From Microgenomates group bacterium (GTDB taxonomy: Bacteria; Patescibacteriota; Microgenomatia; Daviesbacterales; UBA10151): 64,000 nt of DNA. Made by a program: the position numbers and the translations under genes. Below are positions 10,042-33,933 of the stretch, piece by piece. The first letter of the stretch is position 1; each line of letters begins with the position of its first letter. A model generated the notes under the pieces. It had not been told where the DNA came from. It worked only from the letters and a program-made list of their open reading frames with translations, and made no database searches. The stretch is from positions 64,589-128,588 of the forward strand of contig JBAZXP010000001.1 in assembly GCA_041659805.1 (NCBI GenBank), written 5' to 3'.

Positions 10042-13000
10042 TTGAAAATTATGAGTAAATTAAACAAAAATTTTAGAATAAAGAAAAAACTCTTTTTTAC
10101 TATTTTAGCCCTTTGTATAGGGATAATTGCCTTCTGGAAATTTAGTAATCCTGCTGTTGCTTCCTGGTGGGATGATAATTGGGCTTTTAGAAAATCCATT
10201 GCTATTACTGCCCATACTGCCTCTGAGAATAATGTATATATTAATTTAACAGGGGCAAACGATTTAGATACCTCTGATACCACCAGATTTCAAACTGATT
10301 GTGGAGATTTAAGATTTACCAAGGAGAATGGAGAATTACTCCCCTATTATGTTGTTTCAGGCTGTGGCACAGCTTCTACTGTAGTCCATGTTAATTTTGA
10401 TACTTTCCCAGCAGGAGCACAAACAATCTATGTTTATTATGGTAACTCCTCTGCTGCTGATGGTTTTAATTTAACTGATTTTTCTACAGAAGCTTCCAAC
10501 TACACTATTGGTTCCCAGGGCTCTGAAGAAAAAACACCTGGGATTATTGCTTATTGGCAATTTGATGAAGGACAAGGTATTTCTGTTAAGGACTCCTCTC
10601 CTAATTCTGCTAATGCCACGCTTGCCGCAGGAGACGGAACTGCACCTACAGGTACGACTAATCCTACTTATAATAGTTCTACAGGCGCTCCTGATACGGG
10701 AGATGGGGCTGACGGAGCTTGTACTGTTTCCTCTGATACCAATATCAACACAGCTTCTTGTGCTGGCAGAGGCACAGCTGATGCTATTAATTTTTCTTCT
10801 ACTGTTGATACCAGTGCAGCTTCTACCTCTATCAAACTCTCTGCAACATCCACAGGTTTAGCTGTCGGCGATGAGATATTAATTATTAACTTAAAAGGAA
10901 CTGCAGCAGTTCCTTCAGATGCAGGAGAATTTGAAACTAAAACTATTACTTCAATTACTACTACCACTAATCCGGATGACACTTTAAACTTTGCCAGTGG
11001 TTTAACAAATGCTTATGCAGGCACCACCCAAAAAATTATGGTTCAGAGGGTTCCAAATTATACAACTGTCACAGTCAATAGTGGCCAAACTATGACTGCA
11101 GCTGCCTTTGATGGGACAAAAAACGGGGTAATCTTTTTTAGGGCAACCGGAGCAGTAACTGTCACAGGTTCTATCAGTATGAGCGGTAAGGGCTTTACTG
11201 GTGGAGCAGCTCAAACTGCACATGTTAGTAAAGGTGGCAATGGCGGTACAACCTATAATGGCACTGGTGGAAACGGTGGAAATGCAGCCGTGAATGGTAC
11301 GAGTGGTCAAGGAGGTGGTGGAGGTGCAGGTGCTTTATGCCAGGCATCCGATAAAAACGGCTGTTACCAATGGGCTACCGGAGGAACTGGTACAACTGGA
11401 GGCGCAGGAGGTGGTGGTGGAGGCCATTATTCTGCTGCAGGGGGTGGAGGTGGATATGGAACAATCGGCACTGGAGGAGGCAGTTATGATGGAAATTATA
11501 ACGGCTCCCCAGGATCAGGCACTACTGGTGGTAATGGTGCCAGCTCTAATAGTAATAATATCGCTGGTGGTGGAGGTGGAGGTGGTACTTATGGAACTGC
11601 TACTTTAAGTACCTTATTTATGGGAAGTGGAGGCGCTAGCGGTGCAACTTATAGTCAAGCTGGCGATAGTGGCGCAGGAGGAGCTGGAGGCGGAATTATC
11701 TCAATTAACGGTGCAACTATAACAATAACAGGGAGTGTTGTCAGTAATGGTGCTGCTGGAGGTAATGGGGTTAATGATAATGCTTCCGGTGGTGGTGGCG
11801 CCGGTGGTTCAGTTGCTATTAATGGTTTGACAATTGCCTTAGGCTCATCTCTAGTGACAGCTACAGGAGGTGGAGGTGGGACTGTCTGGACTACAGGAGG
11901 AGCTGGAGGAGATGGACGAATAGCAGTTGGCTCTGGCGGTAATAGTCCTACCTGGAAATCAGAGGAATGGTGTATTTCGGGCAAGTGTCTATTTTTTGAT
12001 GGTACATCCTCAAATATTAAAGTTGCAAATGCTATAAATGGAATCCAAACAATCTCTATGTGGGTTAAACCCACTTCCCTCACCACTGGCGCCTTAATTG
12101 ATCTTGACGGCGGTACACATAAAATAACCTTTTCCAATGGAACTCTTTCTACCTCTGGCTTTACCGGTACTACAACCTTTTATGTTAATGGTAAAGTCTC
12201 CTCCACTTTAACCATTGATACCTGGCAATATGTTACAGTAACCACAACGAATGGTTTCAACAGCACTTCCTCTCTAACAATTGCTAAATCAAGCTCAACT
12301 TATTTACAGGGTTTTATTGATGATGTCAAAATATATAACTATGCCAAGACTGCAGCTCAAATTGCTACTGACTTACAAAAAGTTCAATCAAATATGGGTT
12401 CTGGCGAAGTTTTGGGTAACAAGCTAATTGATCCTCTATCTACAGGTTTGCTTGGTTATTGGAAAATGGATGAACTATCAGGCACAACCACAGTTTCAGA
12501 TTCTTACAGAAGCCACACAGGAACCTCTACTTCCAGCACCAATGTCACAACAGGCAAATTTGGCAATGCCAGAAGCTTTAATGGCAGCCAATATATTTCT
12601 GTTACTCACAACTCCAGTTTAAGCCCGTCTGCTATCACCATCTCTGCCTGGGTTTATACCACTTCCCAACCAGGAGTCGGCACCTCATATCAGTTTGTGG
12701 AAAAAAGCGCAAATGACAGTTACCGTTACAGGGTTAATGCCGGAGGAACTATTGGTGTATTTGATCAGGGCTGTGGTATTAGCTGTCTATCTTCACCCGG
12801 TAATATTCCATTAAATCAATGGAATCATGTAGTCTATACAGGTGACTCAACGGGCTTAAAAATGTATCTGAACGGTTCTTTGGTTGCCAGTAATTCTACA
12901 GCTTATAGTGGTGGGGCTGCCAACACCAATAATTTATTAATTGGGGGCTCTTATTTTGGCACTGCTGAGTATATGATTGGGAACATTGATGAGGTCAGGC

Positions 13001-15891
13001 TTTATAACAGATCTCTTTCTGCCACAGAAGTAACAGCCCTTTATAACTGGACACCACAGGCAAATGAAGCCCCAGGACCAGTGGGAGCCTGGGATTTTGA
13101 GGAAGCTACCGGAACAACACTTATTGATAACTCAACCAATGGTTATAACGGAACATGGTCAGGCACAGCCAGCCACTACACAACAGGAAAATATGGCAAG
13201 GCAGGTAATTTTAATAGCGCCACGGTCGACTATGTCGATATGGGTGATGTTTTAGATGCAAACACAACAAACAAAATTACTCTTGAGGCTTGGATAAAAA
13301 CGCCCTCTCCAACAGATAATTTTCCAATGATTGTTACAAAATCTGGGGCTTCTGATAACGGATACGAATTCCGTTTTAATTCTACAAACGGAAAACTCCA
13401 GGTTATATATGGAGGAACTACACCAACTAATTTAGTTGGTAATACCGTCTTAGCTGCAAATACTTGGTATCATGTTACAACTACCTATGATGGAGTAACT
13501 GCTAAAATTTATCTTAACGGTGTTTTAGATAATTCAGTGGCTATGACTGGAACTATTACTGCCAATACTGAACATTTACTTATCGGAGCTCGATATGAAA
13601 GCGGTACTCCAGCATATTTTTATACAGGTCAAATTGATGCTGTCAGAATTTATGATTATGCCAGGTCCGCTAGCCAGATTGTTTCTGATATGAATGCAGG
13701 GCATCCTGCTGTTGGCTCCCCTATTGGATCTGCTGTGGGATATTGGAAATTTGATGAAGGGGCAGATAATAGATGCTCTGCTGGAGTAAATGATGCTTGT
13801 AATTCAGGTTCAGGAGGCAATGCTTTAGATGGAGCAGAATCTAACATGGCTGTTCCTGCAACAACTGCATCAGGCTGGACTAATTCAGGTAAATTCAATA
13901 AAGCAATGATTTTTGATGGATCAGATGATCAAATCCAAATTACTGAAACAGCTCCCCTTCGATTTACAACCTCTACTCCTTATTCTTTCTCCTCTTGGGT
14001 CAAACTGGATTCTATCCCTGCTGCAAATGGCTATGAAATTATTGGTAATCGTGCTTGTGCGGTCAGGACTGCCATTTTTGTAAATACTGCCGGTAAAATT
14101 GACTTTAATATCGATGCCACATCCGGAGGAAGTACTGACCCTCTTTCTACAACAGTGCTAACAACAGGTGCCTGGTATCATATTGTCGGTACTTATGACG
14201 GGACAACAGCAAAAGTTTATGTTAATGGAAAACAGGAAGGGTCTCAAGCTATACAGGGCTCAGGAAATATTTATGCAGGTAACCCTTATTTTATTGGCGG
14301 CAGTACTTATACTTGTGGAACGTCCCAAAACTGGCATCTTGATGGCACTATTGATGAGGTTAAAATTTATAATTATGCCTTAACTGCTGATGAGGTTAAG
14401 GCAGATTTTAACAGAGGTCAAAGTCTACAGTTAGGTGGTGGTGGGAATAATTCCACTTATCAACCACAAGCTGCTAATCAGGAATATTGTGTACCTGGGG
14501 ATACCACCTCCTGTGCTGCTCCTGTGGGAGAATGGAAAATGGAAGAAGGCACAGGTCAAACTACTGCTGACACATCTAGTAATGGAAATACCGGAACTTT
14601 TGGAGTTAACTCTGGAGTTAGCACTGATGATCCCATCTGGGCCAAAGGTAAAATTGGCAAAGCTACAAGTTTTGACGGAAGCAATGATTATATTAGTGTC
14701 GCTCATAGTTCTAACCTGACGCCAACAGGAGATTATACATTACAAGCCTGGATCAAAACTTCCTCTACAAACAACCATCAACCAGTTATAGCAAAATTCA
14801 ACGCAACTAATCCTTATCCAGGATATATCTTATCAATTGGTGATTATGCCTCAGCTACTGGCAAAGTGTCACTTTGGGTTGGTGATTGGGCTAGCAGCTA
14901 TTTTAATGGTAATACCTCTGTAAATGATGGCAACTGGCACCATATCGTAGGGGTTTTAAATGGTACAGCAGTCAGAATCTATGTTGATGGAAAACTTGAT
15001 AATAGCGGGACCAGAAGCCCTTCAAGGGCTAATACCCAGGGTTTAACTATTGGCACCAGATATGATAATGGTGGTGTCCTTCCCTGGTTTTTTAACGGTT
15101 CAATAGATCAGGTTCGTGTTTATAATTATGCCAGAACAGCTGCTCAGATAGCCTGGGATTATAATAAAGGCAAGCCTATTGGACATTGGAAACTTGATGA
15201 ATGCCAAGGAAATCAGGCATATGATTCCTCAGGAAATTCTAATACTGGAACCATTACCATTGGAGCTTCTGGAGAAAACACTTTAGGCACCTGCTCTATC
15301 TCTTCCACTGCCTGGGGAGACGGGGCAACAGGCAAAAGAAATGCTTCTTTAAAATTTGACGGAACAGATGATATTTTAAGCGTTGCTTCAATGCCACTGG
15401 CCTGGACTTCTACCACCCCCTTTTCTTATGGAGGCTGGATGAAATTTGCCAATACCACCACAGGTTACATACTCTCATCAAGTGTTTCTCCTGGAGCAGG
15501 AAACCTCTTAACAGACATCAACAAAGATGCATATACTTCAGGTAGGGTAACTTTTGAGGTAGGTAAATCAGGAACAGGTTTTACCCATATAGAGTCTTCA
15601 ATCCCTTATGTCACAGGCTCTTGGGAACACTATTTTGTTACCTATAACGGTGCTAATAATATGAAATTATACCGTAACGGAATTCAAGTTTCCTCTGGCA
15701 CGTATACAAACGGCTCCGCAGCTAGTAACGGTAACGGCTTTTATATGATGTATGCCAATAATTCTACAAACTATGTAAATGGCCAACTGGATGATGTTAA
15801 AGTATTTAATTATGCCCTCACAGCTACCCAGGTCAAGGATATCTACAATGGTGGAGCCATTTTCTACGGCCCAACCACAGGCAGCCCTTAA
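10042..15891 (+). CDS. giant (1949 aa) secreted/anchored protein. Domains in order: signal-anchor, DUF2341-like N-terminal domain (WWDDNWAFRK..I.I), Gly-rich region, six tandem LamG_3 (concanavalin A-like lectin) domains.
   Basis: N-terminal hydrophobic segment. The WW..W.(F/Y)RK..I motif is characteristic of DUF2341. Long GGxGG tracts. Six repeats end in the LamG_3 signature (IDEVRLYNRSLSATEV, IDAVRIYDYARSASQI, IDEVKIYNYALTADEV, IDQVRVYNYARTAAQI, LDDVKVFNYALTATQV, IDDVKIYNYAKTAAQI), each preceded by FDG.DD.I.V and W.H(V/I)..TYDG blocks. A TTG start at 10042 or an ATG at 10051 are both possible. Confidence 0.75.
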   Translation: MKIMSKLNKNFRIKKKLFFTILALCIGIIAFWKFSNPAVASWWDDNWAFRKSIAITAHTASENNVYINLTGANDLDTSDTTRFQTDCGDLRFTKENGELLPYYVVSGCGTASTVVHVNFDTFPAGAQTIYVYYGNSSAADGFNLTDFSTEASNYTIGSQGSEEKTPGIIAYWQFDEGQGISVKDSSPNSANATLAAGDGTAPTGTTNPTYNSSTGAPDTGDGADGACTVSSDTNINTASCAGRGTADAINFSSTVDTSAASTSIKLSATSTGLAVGDEILIINLKGTAAVPSDAGEFETKTITSITTTTNPDDTLNFASGLTNAYAGTTQKIMVQRVPNYTTVTVNSGQTMTAAAFDGTKNGVIFFRATGAVTVTGSISMSGKGFTGGAAQTAHVSKGGNGGTTYNGTGGNGGNAAVNGTSGQGGGGGAGALCQASDKNGCYQWATGGTGTTGGAGGGGGGHYSAAGGGGGYGTIGTGGGSYDGNYNGSPGSGTTGGNGASSNSNNIAGGGGGGGTYGTATLSTLFMGSGGASGATYSQAGDSGAGGAGGGIISINGATITITGSVVSNGAAGGNGVNDNASGGGGAGGSVAINGLTIALGSSLVTATGGGGGTVWTTGGAGGDGRIAVGSGGNSPTWKSEEWCISGKCLFFDGTSSNIKVANAINGIQTISMWVKPTSLTTGALIDLDGGTHKITFSNGTLSTSGFTGTTTFYVNGKVSSTLTIDTWQYVTVTTTNGFNSTSSLTIAKSSSTYLQGFIDDVKIYNYAKTAAQIATDLQKVQSNMGSGEVLGNKLIDPLSTGLLGYWKMDELSGTTTVSDSYRSHTGTSTSSTNVTTGKFGNARSFNGSQYISVTHNSSLSPSAITISAWVYTTSQPGVGTSYQFVEKSANDSYRYRVNAGGTIGVFDQGCGISCLSSPGNIPLNQWNHVVYTGDSTGLKMYLNGSLVASNSTAYSGGAANTNNLLIGGSYFGTAEYMIGNIDEVRLYNRSLSATEVTALYNWTPQANEAPGPVGAWDFEEATGTTLIDNSTNGYNGTWSGTASHYTTGKYGKAGNFNSATVDYVDMGDVLDANTTNKITLEAWIKTPSPTDNFPMIVTKSGASDNGYEFRFNSTNGKLQVIYGGTTPTNLVGNTVLAANTWYHVTTTYDGVTAKIYLNGVLDNSVAMTGTITANTEHLLIGARYESGTPAYFYTGQIDAVRIYDYARSASQIVSDMNAGHPAVGSPIGSAVGYWKFDEGADNRCSAGVNDACNSGSGGNALDGAESNMAVPATTASGWTNSGKFNKAMIFDGSDDQIQITETAPLRFTTSTPYSFSSWVKLDSIPAANGYEIIGNRACAVRTAIFVNTAGKIDFNIDATSGGSTDPLSTTVLTTGAWYHIVGTYDGTTAKVYVNGKQEGSQAIQGSGNIYAGNPYFIGGSTYTCGTSQNWHLDGTIDEVKIYNYALTADEVKADFNRGQSLQLGGGGNNSTYQPQAANQEYCVPGDTTSCAAPVGEWKMEEGTGQTTADTSSNGNTGTFGVNSGVSTDDPIWAKGKIGKATSFDGSNDYISVAHSSNLTPTGDYTLQAWIKTSSTNNHQPVIAKFNATNPYPGYILSIGDYASATGKVSLWVGDWASSYFNGNTSVNDGNWHHIVGVLNGTAVRIYVDGKLDNSGTRSPSRANTQGLTIGTRYDNGGVLPWFFNGSIDQVRVYNYARTAAQIAWDYNKGKPIGHWKLDECQGNQAYDSSGNSNTGTITIGASGENTLGTCSISSTAWGDGATGKRNASLKFDGTDDILSVASMPLAWTSTTPFSYGGWMKFANTTTGYILSSSVSPGAGNLLTDINKDAYTSGRVTFEVGKSGTGFTHIESSIPYVTGSWEHYFVTYNGANNMKLYRNGIQVSSGTYTNGSAASNGNGFYMMYANNSTNYVNGQLDDVKVFNYALTATQVKDIYNGGAIFYGPTTGSP

Positions 15892-15892
15892 T

Positions 15893-16558
15893 ATGAATAA
15901 AGACCAGGAAGAAGTTATTAAAGCAGCTATTGCCCAAACCATGAGGGAACTTACTGCTCCTAAAAAACCCTTACAAGGGTCACGGGTTTGGAAAGACCCT
16001 GAAGGTTATCAATACTTGGCTGTCTGGCAAAATGCTGCCCTCTTAAGGGTTCTTATCCGTAAATTTACCCTTAATCTTACCCTTAACCACCCTTTTGAAA
16101 AACGCTTAAAAGCCCAGCTGGATGATGCAGCCAGATCTCAAAAAAGAAACATCGAAGAAGGCTGGAAAAGACCAACCACCTCTGAATATCTAAATTTCTT
16201 AGGCTTTGCCCAGGGCTCTTTGGAAGAAGTTAAGGGTGATGTTAGGGACGCCAAAACAGATGGGTTTTTAAGGGTAAAAGAAGGGTCGTGTTTAAAAGAT
16301 TTAGGGATAGACTTAACTATCTATAAGGGAGCTGCTAAGGGAATGGCCAAGGGTGAGCCCACAGATCCAGGTCACCCTTACTACCAACCCTTATCTACCC
16401 TTAATCCCAAAACCCTTACCTATGAGATGTTTATGGAGCTAATAAATAAAACAGATTATTTACTAAGATCTCTGGTTCAGTCTTTGGAAAAGAAACTAAG
16501 AGAAGATCAAAAAGGCTACAAAATAGAACAGGAAAGAATCAAAGAAAAATTTAAATAA
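15893..16558 (+). CDS. four-helix-bundle protein of the 23S rRNA intervening-sequence protein family
   Basis: NIEEGWKRPTTSEYLNFLGFAQGSLEEVKGDVRDAKTDGFL matches the conserved NIAEG..R.s..e...FL.iA.GSl.E core of IVS proteins. ATG at 15893 lies just after the upstream stop. The ORF-track start at 15779 overlaps the giant gene and is unlikely. Confidence 0.55.
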   Translation: MNKDQEEVIKAAIAQTMRELTAPKKPLQGSRVWKDPEGYQYLAVWQNAALLRVLIRKFTLNLTLNHPFEKRLKAQLDDAARSQKRNIEEGWKRPTTSEYLNFLGFAQGSLEEVKGDVRDAKTDGFLRVKEGSCLKDLGIDLTIYKGAAKGMAKGEPTDPGHPYYQPLSTLNPKTLTYEMFMELINKTDYLLRSLVQSLEKKLREDQKGYKIEQERIKEKFK

Positions 16559-19175
16559 ATTTTATAGAAGATAAAATTGTATCCAGCTTTTGCATGTTTT
16601 TATCCCCCACAGGAGAAACCTTGAGATGAAGAATGCTTTTTTGTTGTGAGAGTACAAATTCTAAGGTCTGTATGCCCTGAGAATCCACCCAAAAGGCTGC
16701 TGTTGCCTCAAACCCTGGTATCTGAGCCAACCCTTTTTTATCCAGCTTTCCTGGAAATTTAAGCAGACTTGTAGCTACCCAATCATCAGGTTTCCCTGCA
16801 AAAGACCCACCATAAAAACTAATAGTAAATTCGCTGTCTGGAACAGAAAGAGTAGCTACTTTACCTTTTTCTGTTATCTTCCAATCTCCAGGGTACTTAA
16901 AAGAAAATCCTTGTTTCTTTTGTTCAAACGTTTTCCAATCAGAAGCTATATTACTGGATAATTCCTGTCCTGTAATTTTTGCTAACTCATTTTGAGCCTC
17001 TTGCTTTATTTGAGGATTAATATCTCCAGCACCTATCACAAATTGTAACTGTTTTTTCGCCTCTTCTACTTGCCCACCAGCTAAATATGCTTTTGCCAAA
17101 TTTAATCTAACCTCAAAGCTTCCTGGCTCTAAATCTACAGCTTCCTTAAAGTATTTTATGCTAGATATCATATCTCCTTTGTTGGCGGCAAATATGGCCA
17201 TACGATTAGCAACTTCCACAGAAAAAGGAGAAATTGCATAAGCTTTTAAGATATATTCTTCTGCTTTTTTCAAAGCAAGAGATTGATCTTCTTTTGTAGG
17301 TGCACTTTGGGCAACACCAAGCAAATAATCCTCCATGGCAATATAGCTCATCCCATATTCTTGTAATAACAAATGATAAGCAGCATTGTAATTTCTTTCC
17401 AAATAGAATGGTTTATGTTCAAAAAATTTTGGATCCTTAAATTTATATGCAAATGAATCATCAGATGGAGTTAACAAATCATCTGCAGTCAGCATTCTGA
17501 ATGAAAGTCCACTAATTACAGGTTTGAGTAATTTAGGATCAAGCTTAAATTTACCTGCATCAGTTCCAGCCAAAACCGTTTCACGAAACACCATTGGGGT
17601 GACATAAACCGGATGTCCGTGATCAATCAGCCATTTGATATACCAGTTCATCACTTCGTTATACTCTTCCAATCTATCCTTTTTGATCATTCCTTCCAAC
17701 TCTTTGGGCATTAAATCAGGTCTATGGGTACGCAAATTATCACGATACCAGGGCAAAATGTACCACATATTGGCAACAACAGGAAAAACATCAGGCCGAT
17801 TTTTTATAACATCATATTCGTAAAAAGAAAGAGAGTTAAAGAAGTCACCGGAGCCTATAAGAACAGCCCCTTTGGGTAAGTTTGAGTATAAATTGTCTGC
17901 ATACTCTGAGGTGGTAATATGGGCACTTCTGTCTAATTTTGGCAACCACCAAAGGAAAGGAACAAGCACCAAAACAAATAGAATAAAGAATATAGATTTA
18001 GGATTTAAGAATTTTTGTTTTAGAGACAATAATATTTTGATTAAAAGACTAAGACCTATACCGATAAAAATAGTGAATATGACATAACTGGCAATAAACC
18101 AGCTTTCCTGATTCCCGGAAAGATATAATCCCCCAAAGATCAGGTTAGTGATTGGAACTGAGATTAGCATCAAAAATAATCTCCAATTTTTTCGCAGTAA
18201 ATAGTAACCCCCAATTAAAATTAAGGGCACTAAGAGAGGTGTAAATTGTAAAAACAGTAAGTAGAAGTACCTACCAACTGATTTGGCGAAAATTTGTGGC
18301 GAACCTGTAAAGCCATTGATGGAATTTGTTCTGGGATCATTGATATCCAATCCTTCCCCTTTTAAATGTCCCCAAAAAAGTTCCGGTGTTTGGGGATCAC
18401 CCCAATTTATAAATGGATGTTGCAAGGCTCTGATGGGCAAATAAGCATATACCAGCGCAGTTAGTCCAAGCACAATTGCTACAACTAAAATAAATCTCTT
18501 AATCCTTACTTTTTTCCAGAGAAAAATTCCTGCAATGAGTAGTGCAGGGATAGATTGAACAATTGTGGGATTTGTGCCTGTAGCCAGTCCTAAAATAACT
18601 GCCCCTAAAATTAAACGTTTGGTAGATATTTTGCCTGATTCAGGAATCAACATCACCAACCCTAAAAGGGATATCATCATTAAATTAGTTAAAATATAGC
18701 TTTCTGTGTTTAGAGTTTGAGACCAAAATTGATAGGAAAAACCTAAAATTAAGGTTGCAGTAAGGCTGATTGCCTGGATTATCGGGGTGGATAATTTGGG
18801 TATATTTTTAAAATAGCCTGTAAATAAATTTTTATCCTCTCTACCCTCTTTCACAAACCAAAAATTATTGCTGATTAATCTAAATAGTAAAAAATAAACC
18901 CAGGTTAAAACTCCCAATGCTGCAAGAACAGACAAAAGCTGCATTCTAAAAAGCACTGAACCAAACGGTATTTTAGTAAATAAGTGCCCAATCATCACAT
19001 AAAAAGGAAATCCCGGTGGATTTGGGATACCTGGCTCAAATGCTGCAGCAATCATAGTACCTGCATCAATATAAAGAATAGAGGGAGCCAGTGTTTTGAT
19101 ATATATAAATCCACAAAACAACCAAATAACTAACAAAAAAGGTAAATGAGGGAAAATAGGGCGAATATTTTTCAC
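16551..19175 (-). CDS. DUF2723 / TMEM260-like GT-C-fold membrane glycosyltransferase with C-terminal TPR repeats and a C-terminal beta domain
   Basis: 874 aa. N-terminus PSILYIDAGTMIAAAFEPGIPNPPGFPFYVMIGHLF matches the DUF2723 signature (..D.GEF..AA..LGI.HPPGYPL). More than 10 predicted TM helices. TPR-like AYHLLLQEYGMSYIAMEDY and KAYLAGGQVEEAKKQL segments. C-terminal domain shared with the next gene. Confidence 0.6.
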   Translation of the reverse strand: MKNIRPIFPHLPFLLVIWLFCGFIYIKTLAPSILYIDAGTMIAAAFEPGIPNPPGFPFYVMIGHLFTKIPFGSVLFRMQLLSVLAALGVLTWVYFLLFRLISNNFWFVKEGREDKNLFTGYFKNIPKLSTPIIQAISLTATLILGFSYQFWSQTLNTESYILTNLMMISLLGLVMLIPESGKISTKRLILGAVILGLATGTNPTIVQSIPALLIAGIFLWKKVRIKRFILVVAIVLGLTALVYAYLPIRALQHPFINWGDPQTPELFWGHLKGEGLDINDPRTNSINGFTGSPQIFAKSVGRYFYLLFLQFTPLLVPLILIGGYYLLRKNWRLFLMLISVPITNLIFGGLYLSGNQESWFIASYVIFTIFIGIGLSLLIKILLSLKQKFLNPKSIFFILFVLVLVPFLWWLPKLDRSAHITTSEYADNLYSNLPKGAVLIGSGDFFNSLSFYEYDVIKNRPDVFPVVANMWYILPWYRDNLRTHRPDLMPKELEGMIKKDRLEEYNEVMNWYIKWLIDHGHPVYVTPMVFRETVLAGTDAGKFKLDPKLLKPVISGLSFRMLTADDLLTPSDDSFAYKFKDPKFFEHKPFYLERNYNAAYHLLLQEYGMSYIAMEDYLLGVAQSAPTKEDQSLALKKAEEYILKAYAISPFSVEVANRMAIFAANKGDMISSIKYFKEAVDLEPGSFEVRLNLAKAYLAGGQVEEAKKQLQFVIGAGDINPQIKQEAQNELAKITGQELSSNIASDWKTFEQKKQGFSFKYPGDWKITEKGKVATLSVPDSEFTISFYGGSFAGKPDDWVATSLLKFPGKLDKKGLAQIPGFEATAAFWVDSQGIQTLEFVLSQQKSILHLKVSPVGDKNMQKLDTILSSIKFI

Positions 19176-19184
19176 TTATTAATC

Positions 19185-21110
19185 TTAGCTAAATTTGAGT
19201 GATGTGACAATAGAATCAAATTGTTTCATTAATTCAGTATTTACAGGATAAACCAGAATTTTTATAATTTTTTCTCCTTTAAACAGATAAAAAAGCATTT
19301 TCTCAACTTCCCCTTCCTTAAAGACCTTTACATATGCATAATCAAAATCTGGAATCTGTGCTAACCCCTGATTCACCAAATTACCATAACTTTCTGTTTG
19401 TGTTTTTAGATAATCTTCTGGAGATTTTTTATTATTTTTATCAAAAAGTAAAACCATTTCAAAGCTTTTATCTTCATTCATAATTCGCAAATCTAAATTC
19501 TTAAATCTCTCCTCAACACTCCAACTAAAGGGATAAGAAAAAGAAAATCCTAATGGAGAAACATAATTTTGTTTAGTTAAATTATCTAAAATTATTTTCC
19601 CTTCCCAAAAATTTGGATCTGCTTTAACTGCTAATTTATAATTTTCTATAGCTTTTTCTTTATCCCCTATTTGTTGATAAGTTCTGGCTTTTGAGGCAAT
19701 TGCCACAGCAAAATGTGGATTAATATCAAAAGCTTTTTGATAAGAGAAAATTGCTTTATCTATTTCTCCATTCGAAACATATGCTTCCCCTAACTGAAAA
19801 TATGCATAAGCATTATTGGGATTTGTTTGAATATCCTTTTGCCATAAAGTTATTGCATCTTTCCAATCCCCCACTCTTAAAAAAGTCACGACAAAAAACC
19901 CACCACAAACCAAAACCAAAATTGCTTTATAAAAAAATTGATTATTAATTTTTCCTAATAAATATGTTGCCACTAAAATCAAACCAAAAGACGGGGCATA
20001 TAAAAATTTCTCATGCATTAAAGACCACTGGGGAATAATATTTGAAACAGGAATTAAAGTAATGAAAAACCAACAACCACCAAAAGTAATAATTGGGTGT
20101 TTCCTAAAACTTTTCCAAATTATAAATCCCAAAAAGATTAAAGTAAAAAAAGCCAGTGAGAATTCCCAGTCAAAAATACTTTGGGAAGTTATTGGTTGCA
20201 GGGAATGTCCTCTATATAAAATAGCCTCTATTCCCCTTGGAATAATGTGATTATGCGTTAAATTTATTGGCAAAATCGTTAAAGTAAGATACTCAAATAA
20301 AACTTTAACTCCTGCCAAAAATGTTGAAAAAATACTGCCGTTTAAATATTCTCCTCTACCTACTCCATTAGTTACAATTTGCCTGATCAAAAAAAATCCT
20401 CCAGCTAAAATAAAATATGGCAAATATTTTTTCCAGGTTTTTTTAATACTATTTTTTGTAAAACACAAATCATAAAGAATAATTAAAAAAGGTAAAGTCA
20501 AAGTCATTTCATAGGTAAAAAAAGCTAATAGAGCAAACAGATAAGAACCAAATAGCGCGAGGGGTGGCGCGAAAGAGGGTTCCCATCGCCGCGCCCGCAG
20601 CGACAGCGAGGACGGACGATGGGATACTGGCGCGACAGGACCCCGAGTAAATAAGTAAAGATAAAATGATATTAAAAAGAAAACTATCCCAGTAGCTTCC
20701 ATACTTACTACTGTATAAGCTATAGTTTCTGTATGAATTGGATGTAATGCAAATAATAATCCCCCTGCAAAAGCCAAAGATTTTTTCTTTAAAATAATTT
20801 CCAGAATAAAATAAATTAAAGCTGTAGAAATTAAATGAATGAGTAATGCATGTAAGTGATATCCAAAGGGATTTGTTCCCCAAATGGAATAATAAAAAGC
20901 ATACAAAATACTTCTTATTGGTCTGTAGACTCCTTCATGCCCTGATGGCACAGCACCCTGAAAAAACTCCACAATATTAGATAAAGAATGTCCTTTTTCC
21001 CAAGCGATAATAAAAGTTTTATCATCTATCACAAATTGATTTTGAAATATATTAATGTAAGCAAAGATAGTAACTACAATAATAATTATTAGTGGTAAAT
21101 ATTTTTTCAT
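19185..21110 (-). CDS. TMTC/DUF1736-like polytopic membrane protein (putative protein O-mannosyltransferase family) with C-terminal TPR repeats. Contains a GC-rich in-frame insertion.
   Basis: 641 aa. N-terminus FQNQFVIDDKTFIIAWE...GVYRPIRSILYAFYYSIWGTNPFGYHLHALLIHL matches the TMTC N-terminal F..DD...I..N...YRP...S...Y..FG..P.GYH..N. block. TPR repeats (AYAYFQLGEAYVSNGEIDKAIFSYQKAFDINP). Paralog of the next gene. Confidence 0.6.
   Translation of the reverse strand: MKKYLPLIIIIVVTIFAYINIFQNQFVIDDKTFIIAWEKGHSLSNIVEFFQGAVPSGHEGVYRPIRSILYAFYYSIWGTNPFGYHLHALLIHLISTALIYFILEIILKKKSLAFAGGLLFALHPIHTETIAYTVVSMEATGIVFFLISFYLYLFTRGPVAPVSHRPSSLSLRARRWEPSFAPPLALFGSYLFALLAFFTYEMTLTLPFLIILYDLCFTKNSIKKTWKKYLPYFILAGGFFLIRQIVTNGVGRGEYLNGSIFSTFLAGVKVLFEYLTLTILPINLTHNHIIPRGIEAILYRGHSLQPITSQSIFDWEFSLAFFTLIFLGFIIWKSFRKHPIITFGGCWFFITLIPVSNIIPQWSLMHEKFLYAPSFGLILVATYLLGKINNQFFYKAILVLVCGGFFVVTFLRVGDWKDAITLWQKDIQTNPNNAYAYFQLGEAYVSNGEIDKAIFSYQKAFDINPHFAVAIASKARTYQQIGDKEKAIENYKLAVKADPNFWEGKIILDNLTKQNYVSPLGFSFSYPFSWSVEERFKNLDLRIMNEDKSFEMVLLFDKNNKKSPEDYLKTQTESYGNLVNQGLAQIPDFDYAYVKVFKEGEVEKMLFYLFKGEKIIKILVYPVNTELMKQFDSIVTSLKFS
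20554..20646. repeat. 93-bp GC-rich in-frame insertion inside the TMTC-like gene, absent from the tandem paralog
   Basis: Sequence gcgcgaggggtggcgcgaaagagggttcccatcgccgcgcccgcagcgacagcgaggacgg... encodes RGPVAPVSHRPSSLSLRARRWEPSFAPPLALFG. The flanking protein sequence aligns directly to the paralog (...AFFTYEMTLTLPFLIILYDLCF). It contains the palindrome CGCG-AGGGGTGG-CGCG. Confidence 0.6.
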
Positions 21111-22603
21111 TTGATAATTAATTGATCTAATATTTTTTGGGCTGGAGTAAATTCTGGATTAATTAAAACTACCTGATAAAATTGTTCCCCTGCCAAATCC
21201 CCTCTTTGTGTCTTTAAATAAATATTTCCCAAATTATATCTTGCTTCCCAAAATCTTGGATCCAAATCAATTGTTTTTAAAAAATAATATTTAGCTTTTT
21301 CAAAATTCCCCTGATCACCATATGTAACCCCTAAAGTATAAGCAGCTAAGGCAGATTTAGGATGTTGAGACTCAACCTTTGTCCAAAAACTAATAGGATC
21401 TTTCCAAGCTTGGTTTTGAATAAAAGTTAAAAAGAAATAAGTGATAAGCAATAAGATTGTAATGATGGTAATCCATTTATACTTTTTACTTAACCAAATT
21501 ATAAAATATGAAAGTAGAAGAAAAAAGGAAATAGAAGAAATATAAAGATATTTATCAGCTATAGCAATTCCTTGGGGAAAAAAATAATCAACAGGAAGTA
21601 AGCTCAAAAAAAACCAACCAATACAAAAAGTTATTAATGGGAATTTCTTAAAATATTTGATAGCTACAAAAACCAGAGAAATTAAAACTAAAATTGAAAA
21701 TAAAATATCTAAATCGAATGGTGTTTGGACTAAAATTGATTGTATATTTGAATGTGGAGTCATAAAAGATTCAAAACCTGGGGCTAAATCATGAATATAA
21801 GAAACAGTATTGGGGAAAATTAACAACCCTATATACATCATCATTACCTTGCTCATAGTTAACATGGTGTGATAAAAACTAAAACCCAAATAATCTCCCC
21901 TGCTAAAAGGAATCTGTAAAATAAAGACCCTGAGGATTAAGAAAGAAGCAGTAGCAATAAAATATGGTGAATATACTAGAATCTGTTTTGATAAATTTTT
22001 GAAGTTTAATTTTTTAAAACACAAATCATAAAGAATAATTAAAAAAGGTAAAGTCAAAGTCATTTCATAAGTAAAGAAAGCAAGGATAGCAAAAACTACA
22101 GATAATATATTTTTAGATTTTAAATACAACAAAAATGACGCTAAAAAGAAAACTACTCCTGACATCTCCATACTGGCAGAAATATAAGTTATAGATTCTG
22201 TATGAACTGGATGTAACCCAAACATTAAACTTGTTAAAAATGCCACATATTTTTTCTTGATTAGCTCCATTACCAAAAAGTAGACCAAAATTGTAGCTAA
22301 TAGATGAACTATTATGGAATGAATATGATACCCCACAGGATTTTCCCCAAAAATTTGCTGGTATACCAAATACAAGGTGCTCCTGATTGGTCTGTAAACT
22401 CCTTTGTGAATCTCTGGCACTTCCCCTTTGAGCAAATCAGGTAGGTTTTCTACATTTTTAACCTGAGGCCAATCCACAATAAAAGTTTTATCATCAATCA
22501 TAAAACCATTTTGGAAAATATTAACGTAAGCCAAAAATGTTAGAATCACTATTATCAGAAGCTGATTTTTTTTCTGACTAAGTAATGTAATTATAATTTT
22601 CAT
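21107..22603 (-). CDS. TMTC/DUF1736-like polytopic membrane protein with C-terminal TPR repeats (paralog of 19185..21110)
   Basis: 498 aa. FQNGFMIDDKTFIVDWP...GVYRPIRSTLYLVYQQIFGENPVGYHIHSIIVHLLA. TPR (ALAAYTLGVTYGDQGNFEKAKYYFLKTIDLDP). Shares a ~50-bp identical DNA block with the paralog (22019..22068 vs 20461..20510). Confidence 0.6.
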   Translation of the reverse strand: MKIIITLLSQKKNQLLIIVILTFLAYVNIFQNGFMIDDKTFIVDWPQVKNVENLPDLLKGEVPEIHKGVYRPIRSTLYLVYQQIFGENPVGYHIHSIIVHLLATILVYFLVMELIKKKYVAFLTSLMFGLHPVHTESITYISASMEMSGVVFFLASFLLYLKSKNILSVVFAILAFFTYEMTLTLPFLIILYDLCFKKLNFKNLSKQILVYSPYFIATASFLILRVFILQIPFSRGDYLGFSFYHTMLTMSKVMMMYIGLLIFPNTVSYIHDLAPGFESFMTPHSNIQSILVQTPFDLDILFSILVLISLVFVAIKYFKKFPLITFCIGWFFLSLLPVDYFFPQGIAIADKYLYISSISFFLLLSYFIIWLSKKYKWITIITILLLITYFFLTFIQNQAWKDPISFWTKVESQHPKSALAAYTLGVTYGDQGNFEKAKYYFLKTIDLDPRFWEARYNLGNIYLKTQRGDLAGEQFYQVVLINPEFTPAQKILDQLIIK

Positions 22604-22659
22604 CTCTTAAATCTTATTTCTTAAATCTTAAATCTGCTTTATTATTATATACTTAACAA

Positions 22660-24459
22660 ATGGGAAGAAAAACAAAGCTCAAATTATTAAAAAAAGAAGT
22701 CCGCACACAAGAACTTCAACAAATTAAAACTCAAAGATTTGATTCCAAAAGAAAATTACTAAATAAAATTTTAACTATATTTACCCTACTGTCTGTTTTA
22801 CTGGCTATTTTATCCTTGGCTTTTGCTGTTTTTAATCCAGGCTTACCTTCAGGACACGATCTGATTGCCCATGCTTTCCGCTCCAAAATCTTTATTGAAG
22901 CCTTAAGAGAGGAACAATTCCCTGTTAGATGGATTGACTGGGCTAATAATAATTTTAGCGGACCTTTTTTTAATTTTTATCAGGTTGGATATTATTATTT
23001 AGCTTTTTTTATCAGTTTAATCTCTTTTTCCATTTATGATTCTATAAAAATCTTAATCATTGGTTCCTGGTGGTTGGGTGCATTGTTTATGTTTCTTTAT
23101 GCCAGACGTTTTGGAATACTTCCGGCGTCTCTGGCTGCCTTAATCTATGCTTTTACCCCTTATACTATTTCTGATTTTTTTGTCAGGGCTTCTTATCCAG
23201 AATGTTTAGCAATTTCACTTAGCATAGGAATTCTTTGGGCTCTTGATAGAATTCTTGTGACAGCCAAAACTATATATGGTATCCCACTCACACTCTGTGT
23301 GGCCGGTCTGGCTCTGACTCATTTGCCTACTGTGATAATACTGGCGCCAATTTTAATTGGATATTTTTTTCTGTTACTTTTTAATAAAGAAATAAAATTA
23401 AAGGGCTTAATACCCTTTGCTATTGCGGGATTACTTGGACTTGGTTTGTCTGCTTTTTATCTTATTCCATCCCTTTTTGAATTGGATTTGGTAAAAAGTT
23501 CACTTTTAACAGCTTCTTATTATGATTTCAGGCCTCATTTTGTGTATCCTGAACAATTATTTTCTACTTTTTGGGATTATGGAATATCGAAAGCCGGAAA
23601 TACTGATGGTATGTCTTTTCAAGTAGGTCACATCAACTGGATTATTATTTTATTGGCTTTAGTGCTAACAACTTTTTACCTGTTTAAGAAAAATCACAAA
23701 AATACCCTTCATTTAGTGTTCTGGTTATTAACCATACTTTATAGCTTTTTCTTTATTCATGAAATTTCTATATCTTTTTGGGAAAATATTCAAACAATAG
23801 CTTTTATTCAATACCCCTGGAGATATTTAATGGTTATTCCAATTGCCACTGCTGTTTTAGCTAGTCTACTGCTACAAACAATCCCTAAAATATGGCAACA
23901 ATCTTTGATAATTCTTATAACAATTTTAGGAATTTTTATTTTTTACAAAGATTATCTGAAGCCCGCAACATTTCTTTCAACTGATTATTTTAAATTTGAT
24001 ACCAATGATTGGCAAAAAAGTGAGGCTGCTAAATATGCAGTTTTAGAAGAAGGATATGAACCCAAAACAGCTGAACTTACACCTCAAGGAAACTTAAATA
24101 AGTGGGCTCTTATTCAAGGTAAAGGAAAGGTGGAAGAAAAAGCTATCAAACAAGAAAACAAACAATTTACAACAACCAGTACAGAAACCTTGGCATTTTT
24201 ATTAACTACCCATTATTTCCCAGGCTGGAAAGCTTATATAGATAATGCAGAAACAAAAATAGAAACTACACAGGGTTATGGTTTCATGCAAATTGAAGTG
24301 CCTCAAGGAGTGCATAAAGTAGAATTTAAATTTACTAATACCCCAATTAGATCAGCTGCTAATTTAATTTCTATATTTTCTTTAATTACTTTTGTAATAT
24401 GGCAAATACTTGCTTGGAAAAAATATTTATTTGTAGATAAGACCAACAGTAGAAGTTAG
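22660..24459 (+). CDS. YfhO-like GT-C-fold membrane protein (putative glycosyltransferase)
   Basis: 599 aa with multiple TM helices. The C-terminal soluble domain YFPGWKAYIDNAETKIETTQGYGFMQIEVPQGVHKVEFKFTNTP matches the YfhO-family C-terminal block (YFPGWKA.VDG....V..G.H.VEF.Y). Confidence 0.5.
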   Translation: MGRKTKLKLLKKEVRTQELQQIKTQRFDSKRKLLNKILTIFTLLSVLLAILSLAFAVFNPGLPSGHDLIAHAFRSKIFIEALREEQFPVRWIDWANNNFSGPFFNFYQVGYYYLAFFISLISFSIYDSIKILIIGSWWLGALFMFLYARRFGILPASLAALIYAFTPYTISDFFVRASYPECLAISLSIGILWALDRILVTAKTIYGIPLTLCVAGLALTHLPTVIILAPILIGYFFLLLFNKEIKLKGLIPFAIAGLLGLGLSAFYLIPSLFELDLVKSSLLTASYYDFRPHFVYPEQLFSTFWDYGISKAGNTDGMSFQVGHINWIIILLALVLTTFYLFKKNHKNTLHLVFWLLTILYSFFFIHEISISFWENIQTIAFIQYPWRYLMVIPIATAVLASLLLQTIPKIWQQSLIILITILGIFIFYKDYLKPATFLSTDYFKFDTNDWQKSEAAKYAVLEEGYEPKTAELTPQGNLNKWALIQGKGKVEEKAIKQENKQFTTTSTETLAFLLTTHYFPGWKAYIDNAETKIETTQGYGFMQIEVPQGVHKVEFKFTNTPIRSAANLISIFSLITFVIWQILAWKKYLFVDKTNSRS

Positions 24460-25668: not shown

Positions 25669-26847
25669 TCAAGGCACACAACCATTGCCATTATTATATA
25701 AAGCAGCTATTTCAGAAGGAGAAAGAGCTCTATTATAAACCCTCACATCTTCAATAGGACCATTAAAATATGTAGTTCCACCTATTTTAAAAGTACCTGT
25801 TGAATGGGTCCCAATACCAGTAGTCCAATTACCATATCCTGGCGTGGTAGCATCCACTCCATTTTTATAAATTTTCATTTGATTTGAGCCATTATAAGTT
25901 GCCACTAAATGAACCCACTCATTTATGTTTAGAGTACCATTACCCCTTGCTTCACCAACACCATTATTATAAATATGAAAAGAGTAGCCTCCAGTAACTG
26001 TTGCAGTACTCCAAATATGAATAGCGTAGCCTCCCCGATCGGTTCCACTAACATATCTTTCTTTGTGCAAAGACCGTGTATAACCATTAACTGGCGGGAG
26101 ACCGAGAGGTTTCATCCAAATAGAAATACTAATAGGGTTTAACCCTTCGATATTTAAACTGGGAACAGTCGTTGTTGATTGTACAACCTTACTGATTCCA
26201 TCAAAATCACCCATTCTTCCAAAACCAGCTTTTTCACTGACTAGGGTGTTTGCAGCACCATATGCTCTTAAATTATTACCCTGACCAGAAGAATCAATAA
26301 CATCATTGCTAGTCCCATTCCAAGAAGCCTCATCTAATTTCCAATATCCCACCAACCCTGAAGTTAATATTCCATAAGGATCACAGGAAGGATTAGATCC
26401 ACCATATCCACCACCACTACCTCCTCCACCTCCCTCAGATAAAGAAGAGCCTTGGGTAGAAGAAGAACAAAAACAAGTGCTGGAGTTTGAGTAACAAGGA
26501 GCACTCTGGTTATCCCCCAGGGAAGCACAGTAAGCTACTCTGTCTGTTGCTTGAGTAATACAACTTGTTTCTGGTCCTACCAAACAAGGGTAATTATTTC
26601 CTTCTGGGGTTTTGGGGATTTTCCCTGCAGCAAAATCTGTAGTAGCTAAAGCTGAATAAGATCCAGCAGAAGAATATTTAACTTCATAAGCTTTAGAGAT
26701 AGCATTTAAGTCTGCTTTTCTTTGAGCATCTCTGGCAGAAGTAGTTACATTTCTAAAAACAGTCACCCCTACCACTGCTAAAATAGCAATAATAGCCACA
26801 ACAACTAGAAATTCTACCAGAGTGAAGCCTTTAATTTTTCCCTTCAT
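25669..26847 (-). CDS. type IV pilin-like protein (prepilin N-terminal methylation motif) with Cys-rich middle region and C-terminal LamG_3 lectin domain
   Basis: N-terminus MKGKIKGFTLVEFLVVVAIIAILA is a class III signal / prepilin cleavage motif (G|FTLVE). C-terminus GYWKLDE...FDG...W.HLVATYNGSNQMKIYKNGVD...IEDVRVYNRALSPSEIAALYN matches the LamG_3 signature. Confidence 0.7.
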   Translation of the reverse strand: MKGKIKGFTLVEFLVVVAIIAILAVVGVTVFRNVTTSARDAQRKADLNAISKAYEVKYSSAGSYSALATTDFAAGKIPKTPEGNNYPCLVGPETSCITQATDRVAYCASLGDNQSAPCYSNSSTCFCSSSTQGSSLSEGGGGGSGGGYGGSNPSCDPYGILTSGLVGYWKLDEASWNGTSNDVIDSSGQGNNLRAYGAANTLVSEKAGFGRMGDFDGISKVVQSTTTVPSLNIEGLNPISISIWMKPLGLPPVNGYTRSLHKERYVSGTDRGGYAIHIWSTATVTGGYSFHIYNNGVGEARGNGTLNINEWVHLVATYNGSNQMKIYKNGVDATTPGYGNWTTGIGTHSTGTFKIGGTTYFNGPIEDVRVYNRALSPSEIAALYNNGNGCVP

Positions 26848-27624: not shown

Positions 27625-27631
27625 ATGATAT

Positions 27632-27748
27632 TCCGGCAATGACATATTGTCCCGGGGCCTTTCGACCCTAGTATCGTCGGCGCTGCAATCTTTGACTGCT
27701 GAGTTCGGGATGGGATCAGGTCGTTCGGTTGCGCTCAAATCACCGGAC
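27632..27748 (-). rRNA. rrf: 5S ribosomal RNA
   Basis: Reverse complement reads TCCGGTGATTTGAGCGCAACCGAACGACCTGATCCCATCCCGAACTCAGCAGTCAAAG...AGCGCCGACGATACTAGGGTCGAAAGGCCCCGGGACAATATGTCATTGCCGGA. Conserved CCCATCCCGAACTCAG and AGCGCCGA.G.TACT blocks with helix I pairing. Confidence 0.8.
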
Positions 27749-28147: not shown

Positions 28148-29245
28148 TTAAGTTTCTGAAGGCTTAAAGAGCCCCTGACCTAAAACATACCAAAACATGA
28201 CTAAAACAGCTACGCTCAAAGGATTAAAACACAAAGCATATATTAACCCAATTAACAAAGCTAACATAAACCTATTATCTGAAGCTAAAAAGTGATAAAC
28301 AGAGATAATCAGGATCCAGAGAAAAAGAAGAACACCTAAAATCCCCCCTTGAACCCAAAAATCTAAGAATATATTATGACTGCTATCAACTATCTGATAT
28401 TGCACATTATTATTTAGCTGCTTGGCACTTTTAGCCAAAGAGCTTTGAACATTACCAAATCCATTACCATAAATCGGAGAAGACCAACCTGCATGGTATG
28501 CTGTCTGCCAAATCTCTGCCCTGTTTTCAAACCACCCTCCGCCCTCAATAAATGGGAACGATAAGCTGGCTACAATAAGCAGAAAGCCTATAATTGAGGT
28601 TTTTTTAACCTCTAGTAAAAGGTTTTGACTCAGTATTATATATATAATCGTTACAAAAAATGCAAAAAGTCCAGACCTGCTTCCGGATAATAGTATTAAC
28701 TCTAAACAAACAATTAATGAAACTATCCAGTATTTCCACCGGTTTCTGAAAAAGACGCAGGTAAAGAAAAAAATGGCAACAGCAGCTAAAGAATTCGGTT
28801 CTCCCAAAGTTCCCACTGCCCTACCGTTTAAGGTAGCCCCAAAAATAAATCCAATTAAGGCCAAAGTTAAAAGCATTGAAAGAAATAAAAAATAGAAGAA
28901 GCCGTTTAGCTTCATTACATTAATTTGGGAAGAAAGAATGGCAAAAACAATCAAATGCCAGACTAAAAAAACACCCTGGAGTCTGAAAATGTTACCGAAA
29001 AACAACTTAAAATCAGGATTAATAATCAGAGTGCTGAATGTGAGTAAAAAAAGCAAAATAAAAGGTAAAACAACCCAGCTTTTAAGCTTCTTTAAGTGAT
29101 TAGAAAAAAGGCTCACAAGGAGTAAAGCTTCCACCCCAACCTCTACCCCAATCACTTTGGGAATCTCGAAAAATGAAGTTCCGAACGGAAACACAAAAAA
29201 AGGAAGAAAGAAAACCAAGGCTAAAATAATTTGACGGGCATTCAC
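28148..29245 (-). CDS. polytopic membrane protein, possibly O-antigen ligase (Wzy_C)-like
   Basis: 365 aa with about 10 TM helices. The pattern GSRSGLFAF..TIIY resembles the O-antigen ligase core. Assignment is tentative. Confidence 0.35.
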   Translation of the reverse strand: MNARQIILALVFFLPFFVFPFGTSFFEIPKVIGVEVGVEALLLVSLFSNHLKKLKSWVVLPFILLFLLTFSTLIINPDFKLFFGNIFRLQGVFLVWHLIVFAILSSQINVMKLNGFFYFLFLSMLLTLALIGFIFGATLNGRAVGTLGEPNSLAAVAIFFFTCVFFRNRWKYWIVSLIVCLELILLSGSRSGLFAFFVTIIYIILSQNLLLEVKKTSIIGFLLIVASLSFPFIEGGGWFENRAEIWQTAYHAGWSSPIYGNGFGNVQSSLAKSAKQLNNNVQYQIVDSSHNIFLDFWVQGGILGVLLFLWILIISVYHFLASDNRFMLALLIGLIYALCFNPLSVAVLVMFWYVLGQGLFKPSET

Positions 29246-31455: not shown

Positions 31456-31496
31456 GAGGTGCCGAACGATACCGTCCTTGTGGACTGTTGGGTATC

Positions 31497-31530
<34 letters not shown>

Positions 31531-31842: not shown

Positions 31843-31880
<38 letters not shown>

Positions 31881-33290: not shown

Positions 33291-33327
<37 letters not shown>

Positions 33328-33893: not shown

Positions 33894-33933
<40 letters not shown>

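Follow-up and report, generated by a model that had tools for sequence, protein, structure and literature searches.

Four adjacent genes in a 64,000-nt stretch of the chromosome of a Microgenomates group bacterium, a member of the Candidate Phyla Radiation (CPR), are predicted to encode membrane glycosyltransferases of the GT-C type, and they probably belong to a conserved CPR module of paralogous, polyprenyl-phosphate-sugar-dependent transferases acting at the outer face of the membrane, of which three (P1, P2 and P3) would be protein Ser/Thr O-glycosyltransferases. We refer to the whole stretch as the window, and coordinates are positions in it. P1 (16551-19175, minus strand; 874 aa) is of the TMEM260/DUF2723 type, P2 (19185-21110, minus strand; 641 aa) and P3 (21107-22603, minus strand; 498 aa) are of the TMTC type, and P4 (22660-24459, plus strand; 599 aa) is of the YfhO/PTPS_related type. 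The stop of P3 overlaps the start of P2 by 4 bp and a gap of 9 bp separates P2 from P1, so that P3, P2 and P1 look like one operon; P4 is divergent from P3, with a spacer of 56 bp. The original prediction, which had been made from the sequence without database searches, described four consecutive open reading frames (ORFs) for polytopic glycosyltransferases here, and all four were found at exactly those positions with the quoted peptide strings present. Each protein has the multi-helix GT-C membrane fold, and the possibility that they are transporters was rejected, as no transporter-family profile appeared in any search that we made. An acidic motif in the first extracytoplasmic loop was also present in all four proteins (P1 D37, P2 D29-D30, P3 D37-D38 and P4 H66-D67). 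The predicted family memberships were thus largely right, as judged by profile searches, homology and motifs; the description of these families as eukaryote-like is a loaded label for proteins that occur widely in CPR bacteria, in DPANN archaea and in several further phyla of bacteria.

P1, which had been described as a DUF2723/TMEM260-like protein, matched PF11028 at 75.6 bits (cutoff 24.2) over residues 37-218, and a phmmer search of PDB sequences aligned it with human TMEM260 (PDB 9rql, chain A; E = 5e-16). The alignment was collinear in three stretches (P1 residues 21-103, 139-271 and 353-487, matching TMEM260 residues 36-119, 125-262 and 350-483), which between P1 residues 21 and 487 span both the GT-C core and the luminal Rossmann-like domain. 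Like TMEM260, an IPT-domain O-mannosyltransferase (PDB 9RQL, 9RQM and 9RQN), P1 has a membrane GT-C core followed by an extracytoplasmic Rossmann-like domain and a tetratricopeptide repeat (TPR) domain, to which it adds a C-terminal PsbP-like domain. The TPR region of P1 (17034..17267, minus strand; residues 637-714) was recognized by TPR_19 and TPR_17, and consensus-TPR structures matched residues 637-711; judging its side of the membrane from homology, this domain would be extracytoplasmic.

A cryo-EM study of TMEM260 (preprint 10.64898/2026.03.17.711096) identified D52 in the first loop as the Asp that aligns the donor, proposed that the acceptor Thr is deprotonated by D441, a general base in the luminal Rossmann-like domain, placed H67, R264, Y267 and R355 in contact with the donor, and found the TPR domain (the "fingers") to be necessary and sufficient to recruit the acceptor peptide. 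In the HMMER alignment, D52 corresponded to P1 D37 (codon 19065..19067, minus strand) and D441 to P1 D444 (codon 17844..17846, minus strand), the latter through the pairing of GSGDF in P1 with LRGDL in TMEM260. D37 was invariant and D444 at least 90% conserved in an alignment of 41 sequences of the P1 family (A3), while R264 and Y267 lie just beyond the aligned stretch and hence were not placed on P1. Because the match is collinear and both Asp residues are conserved in the family alignment, P1 is, as far as its sequence indicates, a true TMEM260-type enzyme with an intact catalytic Asp pair and a somewhat different donor pocket. This family comprised about 120 relatives among the matches listed, some of which are named "DUF2723 domain-containing protein" by NCBI. 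P1 also differs from TMEM260 in being bacterial, in being paired with a YfhO-like gene, and in its presumed donor, an undecaprenyl-phosphate (Und-P) sugar instead of dolichyl-phosphate mannose (Dol-P-Man).

P2 and P3 are 41% identical to each other and had been called TMTC/DUF1736-like proteins with C-terminal TPRs. The TPRs were found by TPR_1, TPR_2 and TPR_8 matches: in P2 the membrane domain is followed by TPRs at about residues 405-505 and then by a PsbP-like domain, and in P3 it is followed by about three TPRs at residues 403-497. The array begins, as in the TMTC proteins, right after the last transmembrane helix, and TPR helices were also seen in the AlphaFold2 model. The DUF1736 part of the description did not hold. 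Pfam searches with the full-length proteins returned only TPRs; the membrane domains alone did not match PF08409 (DUF1736) or any other Pfam family at E <= 10; and PF08409 was absent from the top 25 families obtained when 55 family members were scanned singly, as well as from the precomputed Pfam hits of homologs. The PMT_2 family was matched by 12 of these 55 members. The P3 membrane domain had no phmmer match among PDB sequences, and in a search of PDB with the full-length profile of the P2/P3 family the TPR matches swamped all else.

The TMTC part of the description was borne out by comparison of an alignment of the 55-sequence P2/P3 family (A1, which includes P2) with the N-terminal domain of human TMTC3. 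The TMTC3 comparator sequence (residues 1-442) was validated by its PF08409 match at residues 259-330 (E = 1e-31; 258-331 in the published description, PMC7801869) and by the occurrence of D31/D32 and H67-P72 at their published residue numbers (PMC7801869). The A1 profile aligned with this domain over 394 columns with a probability of 99.8% and E = 5e-28 (hhalign), and BLASTP matched P3 to TMTC3 across the whole membrane domain (E = 6e-19). These results indicate that the homology of P2 and P3 to TMTC proteins extends along the entire membrane domain.

The conserved motifs of the TMTC proteins are DD (M1), SHKSYRP (M2), RxD (M3), KE(T/Q)xxT (M4), DW (M5, in the DUF1736 loop) and ERxxY (M7) (PMC7801869). 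In A1, the conserved positions (P3 numbering) were N28, N32, D37-D38, Y70-R71-P72, H131-P132-x-H134-x-E136, E180, P264 and E350-x-x-x-Y354, as well as R396-N397 at the junction between the membrane domain and the TPRs. The M1 Asp pair (codons 21021..21026 in P2, within FVIDDKTFI, and 22490..22495 in P3, both on the minus strand) and the Tyr and Arg of M2 were at least 90% conserved, and P72 was invariant. M2 reads H66-K67-G-V-Y70-R71-P72 in P3 and HEGVYRP in P2, with a one-residue insertion relative to TMTC, and M7 is retained as E/D-K-x-L-Y, with E350 and Y354 at least 90% conserved. In the M3 region the acidic residue is kept (E146) and the Arg is replaced by Ser. E180 is invariant within YEMTLT; neither hhalign nor BLASTP paired it with TMTC3 E189, and its equivalence to M4 is our own reading. 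P2 and P3 therefore resemble TMTC1-4, the metazoan O-mannosyltransferases of cadherins and protocadherins, in the DD of M1, the YRP of M2, HPxHTE, E[KR]xLY (M7) and an RNxDW junction before the TPRs, and they differ from them in a diverged DUF1736 loop, in the M3 Arg and M4 Lys, which are not conserved, in their small number of TPRs (about three), and, in P2, in the added PsbP-like domain. TMTC proteins carry many more than three TPRs.

Two further observations concern these proteins. The closest relatives of P3 include proteins of DPANN archaea (Woesearchaeota, Nanoarchaeota and Altiarchaeota; 42-47% identity), which suggests gene exchange between two groups of ultra-small organisms. P2 contains, in a loop between transmembrane helices, an in-frame insert of about 100 bp (20544-20645, minus strand) with 65% GC against a background of about 30%, which encodes RGPVAPVSHRPSSLSLRARRWEPSFAPP and holds the inverted repeat CCCATCG...CGATGGG; the homologs P0002, P0016, P0022 and P0032 have inserts of differing length in the same loop. 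A possible explanation for the insert is a small GC-rich element, palindromic or mobile, that this loop tolerates.

A C-terminal domain common to P1 (16554..16958, minus strand; residues 740-874) and P2 (19188..19589, minus strand; residues 508-641) had been proposed to be novel. That the two proteins share it was evident from BLASTP (30% identity over 121 residues, E = 1e-16). Its novelty did not survive: PF18933 (PsbP_2) was matched by 13 of 28 family copies (best E = 7.5e-7), with a weak match in P1 itself, and PsbP by 7 of 28, so that the domain is best described, from these sub-threshold Pfam matches in 13 of the 28 copies, as a predicted divergent PsbP-like domain and not as a new fold. 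A profile of the domain had no significant match among PDB sequences. The domain terminates many members of both glycosyltransferase families, and when 1.84 billion representative proteins were searched exhaustively with phmmer it turned up in only 111 clusters, nearly all of which place it at the extreme C-terminus of proteins of 580-880 aa. It is therefore likely to be a narrowly distributed accessory module of GT-C–TPR enzymes, and the GT-C–TPR–PsbP-like architecture of P1 and P2 appears to be previously undescribed.

The assignment of P4 as YfhO-like was confirmed by a match to PF09586 at 39.8 bits (cutoff 28.5), whose best stretch covers only residues 491-560; the match to the 835-position model lies mainly at the C-terminal end. 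It comes mainly through the C-terminal beta-sandwich of P4 (residues 482-558), which is followed by the last transmembrane helix (562-598). PF10131 (PTPS_related) scored 16.7 bits on P4, under its cutoff of 26.4, and was the commonest precomputed hit among P4 relatives, a few of which had PMT_2. In an alignment of 57 sequences of the P4 family (A2), R90, R176, E181 and H221 were invariant, and H66-D67 in the first loop (codons 22855..22860, plus strand), which contains the candidate catalytic Asp, was at least 90% conserved. The P4 profile aligned with that of the TMTC-like family with a probability of 83% (E = 8e-6; hhalign), placing this HD opposite the DD of M1. A close relationship between P4 and P1 was considered and rejected, as the profile-profile probability was only 15%. 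P4 thus shares with the YfhO family an above-cutoff PF09586 match, the GT-C fold and a conserved first-loop Asp, and departs from the known YfhO systems in that its relatives mostly match PF10131.

We then compared the neighbourhoods of related genes at 62 loci, taking one genome per species and classing ORFs with hidden Markov models built from the membrane domains only; the counts refer to 27 species with full-length CPR relatives of P1 and to 10 kb on either side of the P1-like gene. A P4-like gene was near the P1-like gene in 15 of the 27 species, and TMTC-like genes were present in 6. The module that recurs consists of a P1-like gene and a divergent P4-like gene with zero to four TMTC-like paralogs and sometimes a Wzy_C gene. 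In the closest relative (P1 84% and P4 77% identical) the P1/P4 pair abuts directly and has the same right flank as in the window, with ribosomal protein S1 and a pilin-like LamG protein, and neither TMTC-like genes nor giant genes are present. The unit conserved among relatives is the P1-like/P4-like pair. Ten of the loci with full-length P1 relatives (L011, L012, L015-L018, L023, L024, L028 and L030) carry the label "uncultured Gammaproteobacteria bacterium". The identity of their P1-like genes to P1 (29-38%) falls in the same range as for relatives from Levybacteria and Daviesbacteria, and a P4-like gene lies within 10 kb in many of them. These third-party (TPA) assemblies may be mislabelled as to taxon.

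From these features we propose that each enzyme would bind an Und-P-linked monosaccharide in its membrane core by means of the first-loop Asp and pass the sugar, with inversion, onto an acceptor hydroxyl. In P1, the role of general base would fall to the second Asp, that of the extracytoplasmic Rossmann-like domain. The extracytoplasmic TPRs of P1, P2 and P3, together with the PsbP-like domain of P1 and P2, would capture extended polypeptide segments, and it is because the TPRs are likely to bind the acceptor polypeptide, as they do in TMEM260, that we take these three enzymes to be protein Ser/Thr O-glycosyltransferases. Their targets would be secreted or surface proteins, with one acceptor preference for each paralog, and P4 may act on a glycopolymer of the cell wall or on protein segments rich in Ser/Thr. 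The identities of the donor lipid, the sugar and the target proteins are thus putative. The presence of an undecaprenyl-diphosphate synthase gene inside the window (61.4 kb; TIGR00055, 245 bits) supports this model, and the CPR glycosyltransferase set probably decorates surface proteins.

Several observations weigh against this model. P1 lacks the equivalents of TMEM260 H67 (replaced by N52 in the HMMER alignment) and R355 (replaced by S358); in the human enzyme, H67A abolished activity and R355A left approximately 20% (10.64898/2026.03.17.711096). P2 and P3 lack both the Pfam DUF1736 signature and the metal-binding DW motif of the TMTC proteins, since CCDW in TMTC3 stands opposite a non-conserved YIHD or a consensus SxNH. 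Among the scanned ORFs of the 64-kb window there was neither a GT2 Und-P-sugar synthase of the CsbB/GtrB type nor a GtcA-type flippase, which also sets P4 apart from known YfhO systems; a GT2 gene does lie at the end of the glycosyltransferase cluster of locus L001. TPRs also occur on envelope proteins that do not modify proteins, such as a Wzy_C-TPR fusion in L005, and the first function characterised for YfhO was the glycosylation of teichoic acid (PMC5836110).

The original prediction went further and proposed that all four enzymes are dedicated to the O-glycosylation of two giant neighbours, G1 and G2, with sugars supplied by dTDP-sugar genes at 54-57 kb. The giants themselves are real. 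G1 (3280..9627, plus strand) is a membrane-anchored fibre of 2115 aa with Pfam matches to MerR and Peptidase_S74, and G2 (10042..15891, plus strand; 1949 aa) has an N-terminal signal anchor, DUF2341, a Gly-rich region and six LamG/ConA-like domains (Laminin_G_3 x6, E = 2e-148). Both are predicted to be surface-exposed, and their Ser+Thr content (27% in G1 and 22% in G2, with local tracts of up to 56-64%) exceeds the 11-13% of the glycosyltransferases, making each of them a candidate acceptor only. Elsewhere, a 3,141-aa homolog of G1 (25% Ser+Thr; 61% identity over 266 aa) directly adjoins the P1-like gene of L010, and L017 has within 10 kb a giant with a weak match to the C-terminus of G1. There are also precedents for GT-C enzymes encoded beside their substrates, in that the S. 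mutans Pgf enzymes are clustered with the adhesin substrates Cnm, CnaB and CbpA (PMC12041528) and the C. bescii GT39 enzyme (Cbes_1864) adjoins celA, so this kind of arrangement, with GT-C enzymes next to Ser/Thr-rich substrates, is already known from Firmicutes.

The comparative evidence did not support this dedicated role. A non-glycosyltransferase ORF of at least 1000 aa was near the P1-like gene in only 3 of the 27 species, those of L010 and L017 among them. By a rough estimate this frequency is not clearly above what chance would give, considering how dense giant genes are in the genomes of CPR bacteria, and the closest relative retains the P1/P4 pair without the giants or the TMTC-like pair. 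The neighbours in L001, L005, L007 and L008 are different again, including MreB, PEGA, sortase and dockerin proteins and polysaccharide-synthesis genes. The association with fibres therefore recurs in a minority of species and is not conserved. The dTDP-sugar genes exist as predicted, with a dTDP-glucose 4,6-dehydratase (TIGR01181, 453 bits, cutoff 365) and a DegT-family aminotransferase at 54-56 kb and a radical-SAM/SPASM protein that completes the group at 54-57.5 kb, but their supposed tie to the glycosyltransferase cluster was rejected, since they lie 30 kb away, beyond the 5S, 23S and 16S rRNA genes and glycolytic and housekeeping genes. The link to the giant fibres is thus attractive and plausible, it has no backing from conservation, and we regard a dedicated fibre-glycosylation system as unlikely. 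Among the putative surface proteins, the pilin-like LamG protein (25669..26847, minus strand; N_methyl and Laminin_G_3 matches) alone remains linked to P1/P4 in the closest relative. It has a Ser/Gly-rich linker, is likewise a candidate acceptor only, and shares 39% identity with its ortholog in L003/L009 (E = 1e-53).

We also considered that the acceptors may not be proteins at all but, for example, glycopolymers of the cell wall, teichoic-acid-like polymers or membrane lipids, with the TPR and PsbP-like domains docking the enzymes to envelope machinery. The GT-C enzymes ArnT, YfhO/GtlB, the Emb/Aft enzymes and PimE all act on such acceptors. YfhO homologs glycosylate lipoteichoic and wall teichoic acids (PMC5836110), Wzy_C genes lie near the module in the window (28148-29245), in L005 (12650-14905, fused to TPRs) and in L007 (6250-7347), and the module of L008 adjoins a polysaccharide-synthesis cluster. 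Three points argue for protein acceptors instead: P1, P2 and P3 have significant homology to two families with characterised protein O-mannosyltransferases, P1 retains the Rossmann-like-domain Asp that serves as the acceptor-Thr base in TMEM260, and it is the TPR domain of TMEM260 that binds the acceptor peptide. Non-protein acceptors for the whole set therefore seem improbable to us. It is very improbable that some of the paralogs are catalytically inactive and serve as TPR scaffolds or chaperones in surface-protein assembly, as might be suggested by the Asp of P3 at position 350 of M7 (where the family consensus is Glu), by the replaced donor contacts of P1 and by the high and variable copy number (zero to four per locus), since the first-loop acidic residues and most of the donor-site motifs are invariant or at least 90% conserved across 41-57 diverse sequences per family, and such conservation within each family argues for selection on catalysis.

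Returning to protein O-glycosylation as the preferred function of P1, P2 and P3, these enzymes differ from the PMT/GT39 family (yeast Pmt1/2/4, actinobacterial Pmt and C. bescii Cbes_1864) in lacking a MIR domain and carrying TPRs, with or without a PsbP-like domain, in its stead, and the sequence similarity of the window enzymes to PMT profiles is weak. For P4, the characterised relatives point both ways, as B. subtilis YfhO and Listeria GtlB glycosylate teichoic acids (YfhO: PMC5836110), and the streptococcal YfhO-family proteins PgtC2, PgfM1 and PgfM2 use Und-P-sugars to glycosylate extracytoplasmic Ser/Thr-rich protein regions (PMC12041528). The literature searches found no study of prokaryotic, including CPR, relatives of TMTC or TMEM260, and the report on TMEM260 refers to bacterial relatives only as "distant homologs in bacteria" (PMC10214176). 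Besides the GT-C–TPR–PsbP-like architecture, two aspects appear to be new, namely a conserved CPR module that unites the TMTC and TMEM260 families with an enzyme of the YfhO type, and the retention of TMEM260 catalytic residues in a CPR enzyme.

TMTC and TMEM260 were only recently recognised as protein O-mannosyltransferases, and the locus shows that both types persist, with intact catalytic residues, in ultra-small CPR bacteria. Surface glycosylation in CPR has been described as unexplored (PMC11623550) and could bear on host-cell attachment, which makes P1 to P4 concrete candidates for study. A far-reaching and doubtful extension would be that CPR (and, through the shared relatives, DPANN) run a multi-enzyme, acceptor-class-specific protein O-glycosylation built from direct prokaryotic relatives of TMTC and TMEM260, the two "non-classical" O-mannosylation pathways of metazoans, in which the TPR and PsbP-like module selects particular acceptors, either folded domains or linkers, on the pilins, LamG adhesins and giant fibres that serve in host-cell attachment; if true, this would offer a tractable prokaryotic model, possibly near the evolutionary source of the animal pathways. 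A more modest view is that these are ordinary members of the GT-C superfamily, which databases already label generically as DUF2723, TPR or YfhO.

The remaining genes of the window include, on the right flank of the cluster, ribosomal protein S1, the pilin-like LamG protein, the Wzy_C (O-antigen-ligase-like) membrane protein (28148-29245, minus strand) and an fn3 protein (29279-30037, minus strand), the last two about 4 kb from the cluster. On the left, G1 unusually joins a cytoplasmic DNA-binding domain to a surface fibre, its order being a MerR-type helix-turn-helix (residues 14-61), a linker of about 100 aa, one transmembrane helix (about 156-180), a fibre of about 1,900 aa and an endosialidase-chaperone domain. 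A stand-alone MerR/HTH_17 gene of 71 aa directly follows the P4 homolog in L006 and L007. Between G2 and P1 is an ORF of the 23S_rRNA_IVP (four-helix-bundle) family (15779-16558, plus strand), which as listed shares about 110 bp with the 3' end of G2 and 8 bp with that of P1; because of these overlaps its true start is probably further downstream.

The 5S, 23S and 16S rRNA genes are all encoded on the minus strand and are unlinked, each lying apart from the others. A group I intron is present in the 23S gene, and an ORF with a LAGLIDADG domain adjoins tRNA genes between the phosphoglycerate kinase (PGK) gene and the 16S gene; the positions of this rRNA, intron and LAGLIDADG region are 27631-27747, 30629-34429, 32117-32376, 39869-40663 and 42234-43625. 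Two ORFs on the plus strand (48097-49713 and 50769-52412) encode secreted proteins with one TSP_1 domain each (E = 1.5e-20 and 2e-19), a domain that to our knowledge is uncommon in bacteria; animal TSP1 repeats are C-mannosylated by the GT-C enzyme DPY19. Lastly, a 505-aa protein encoded at 57966-59483 (plus strand) combines an N-terminal anchor with a Peptidase_S74 (endosialidase-chaperone) domain, and resembles the C-terminal end of G1.

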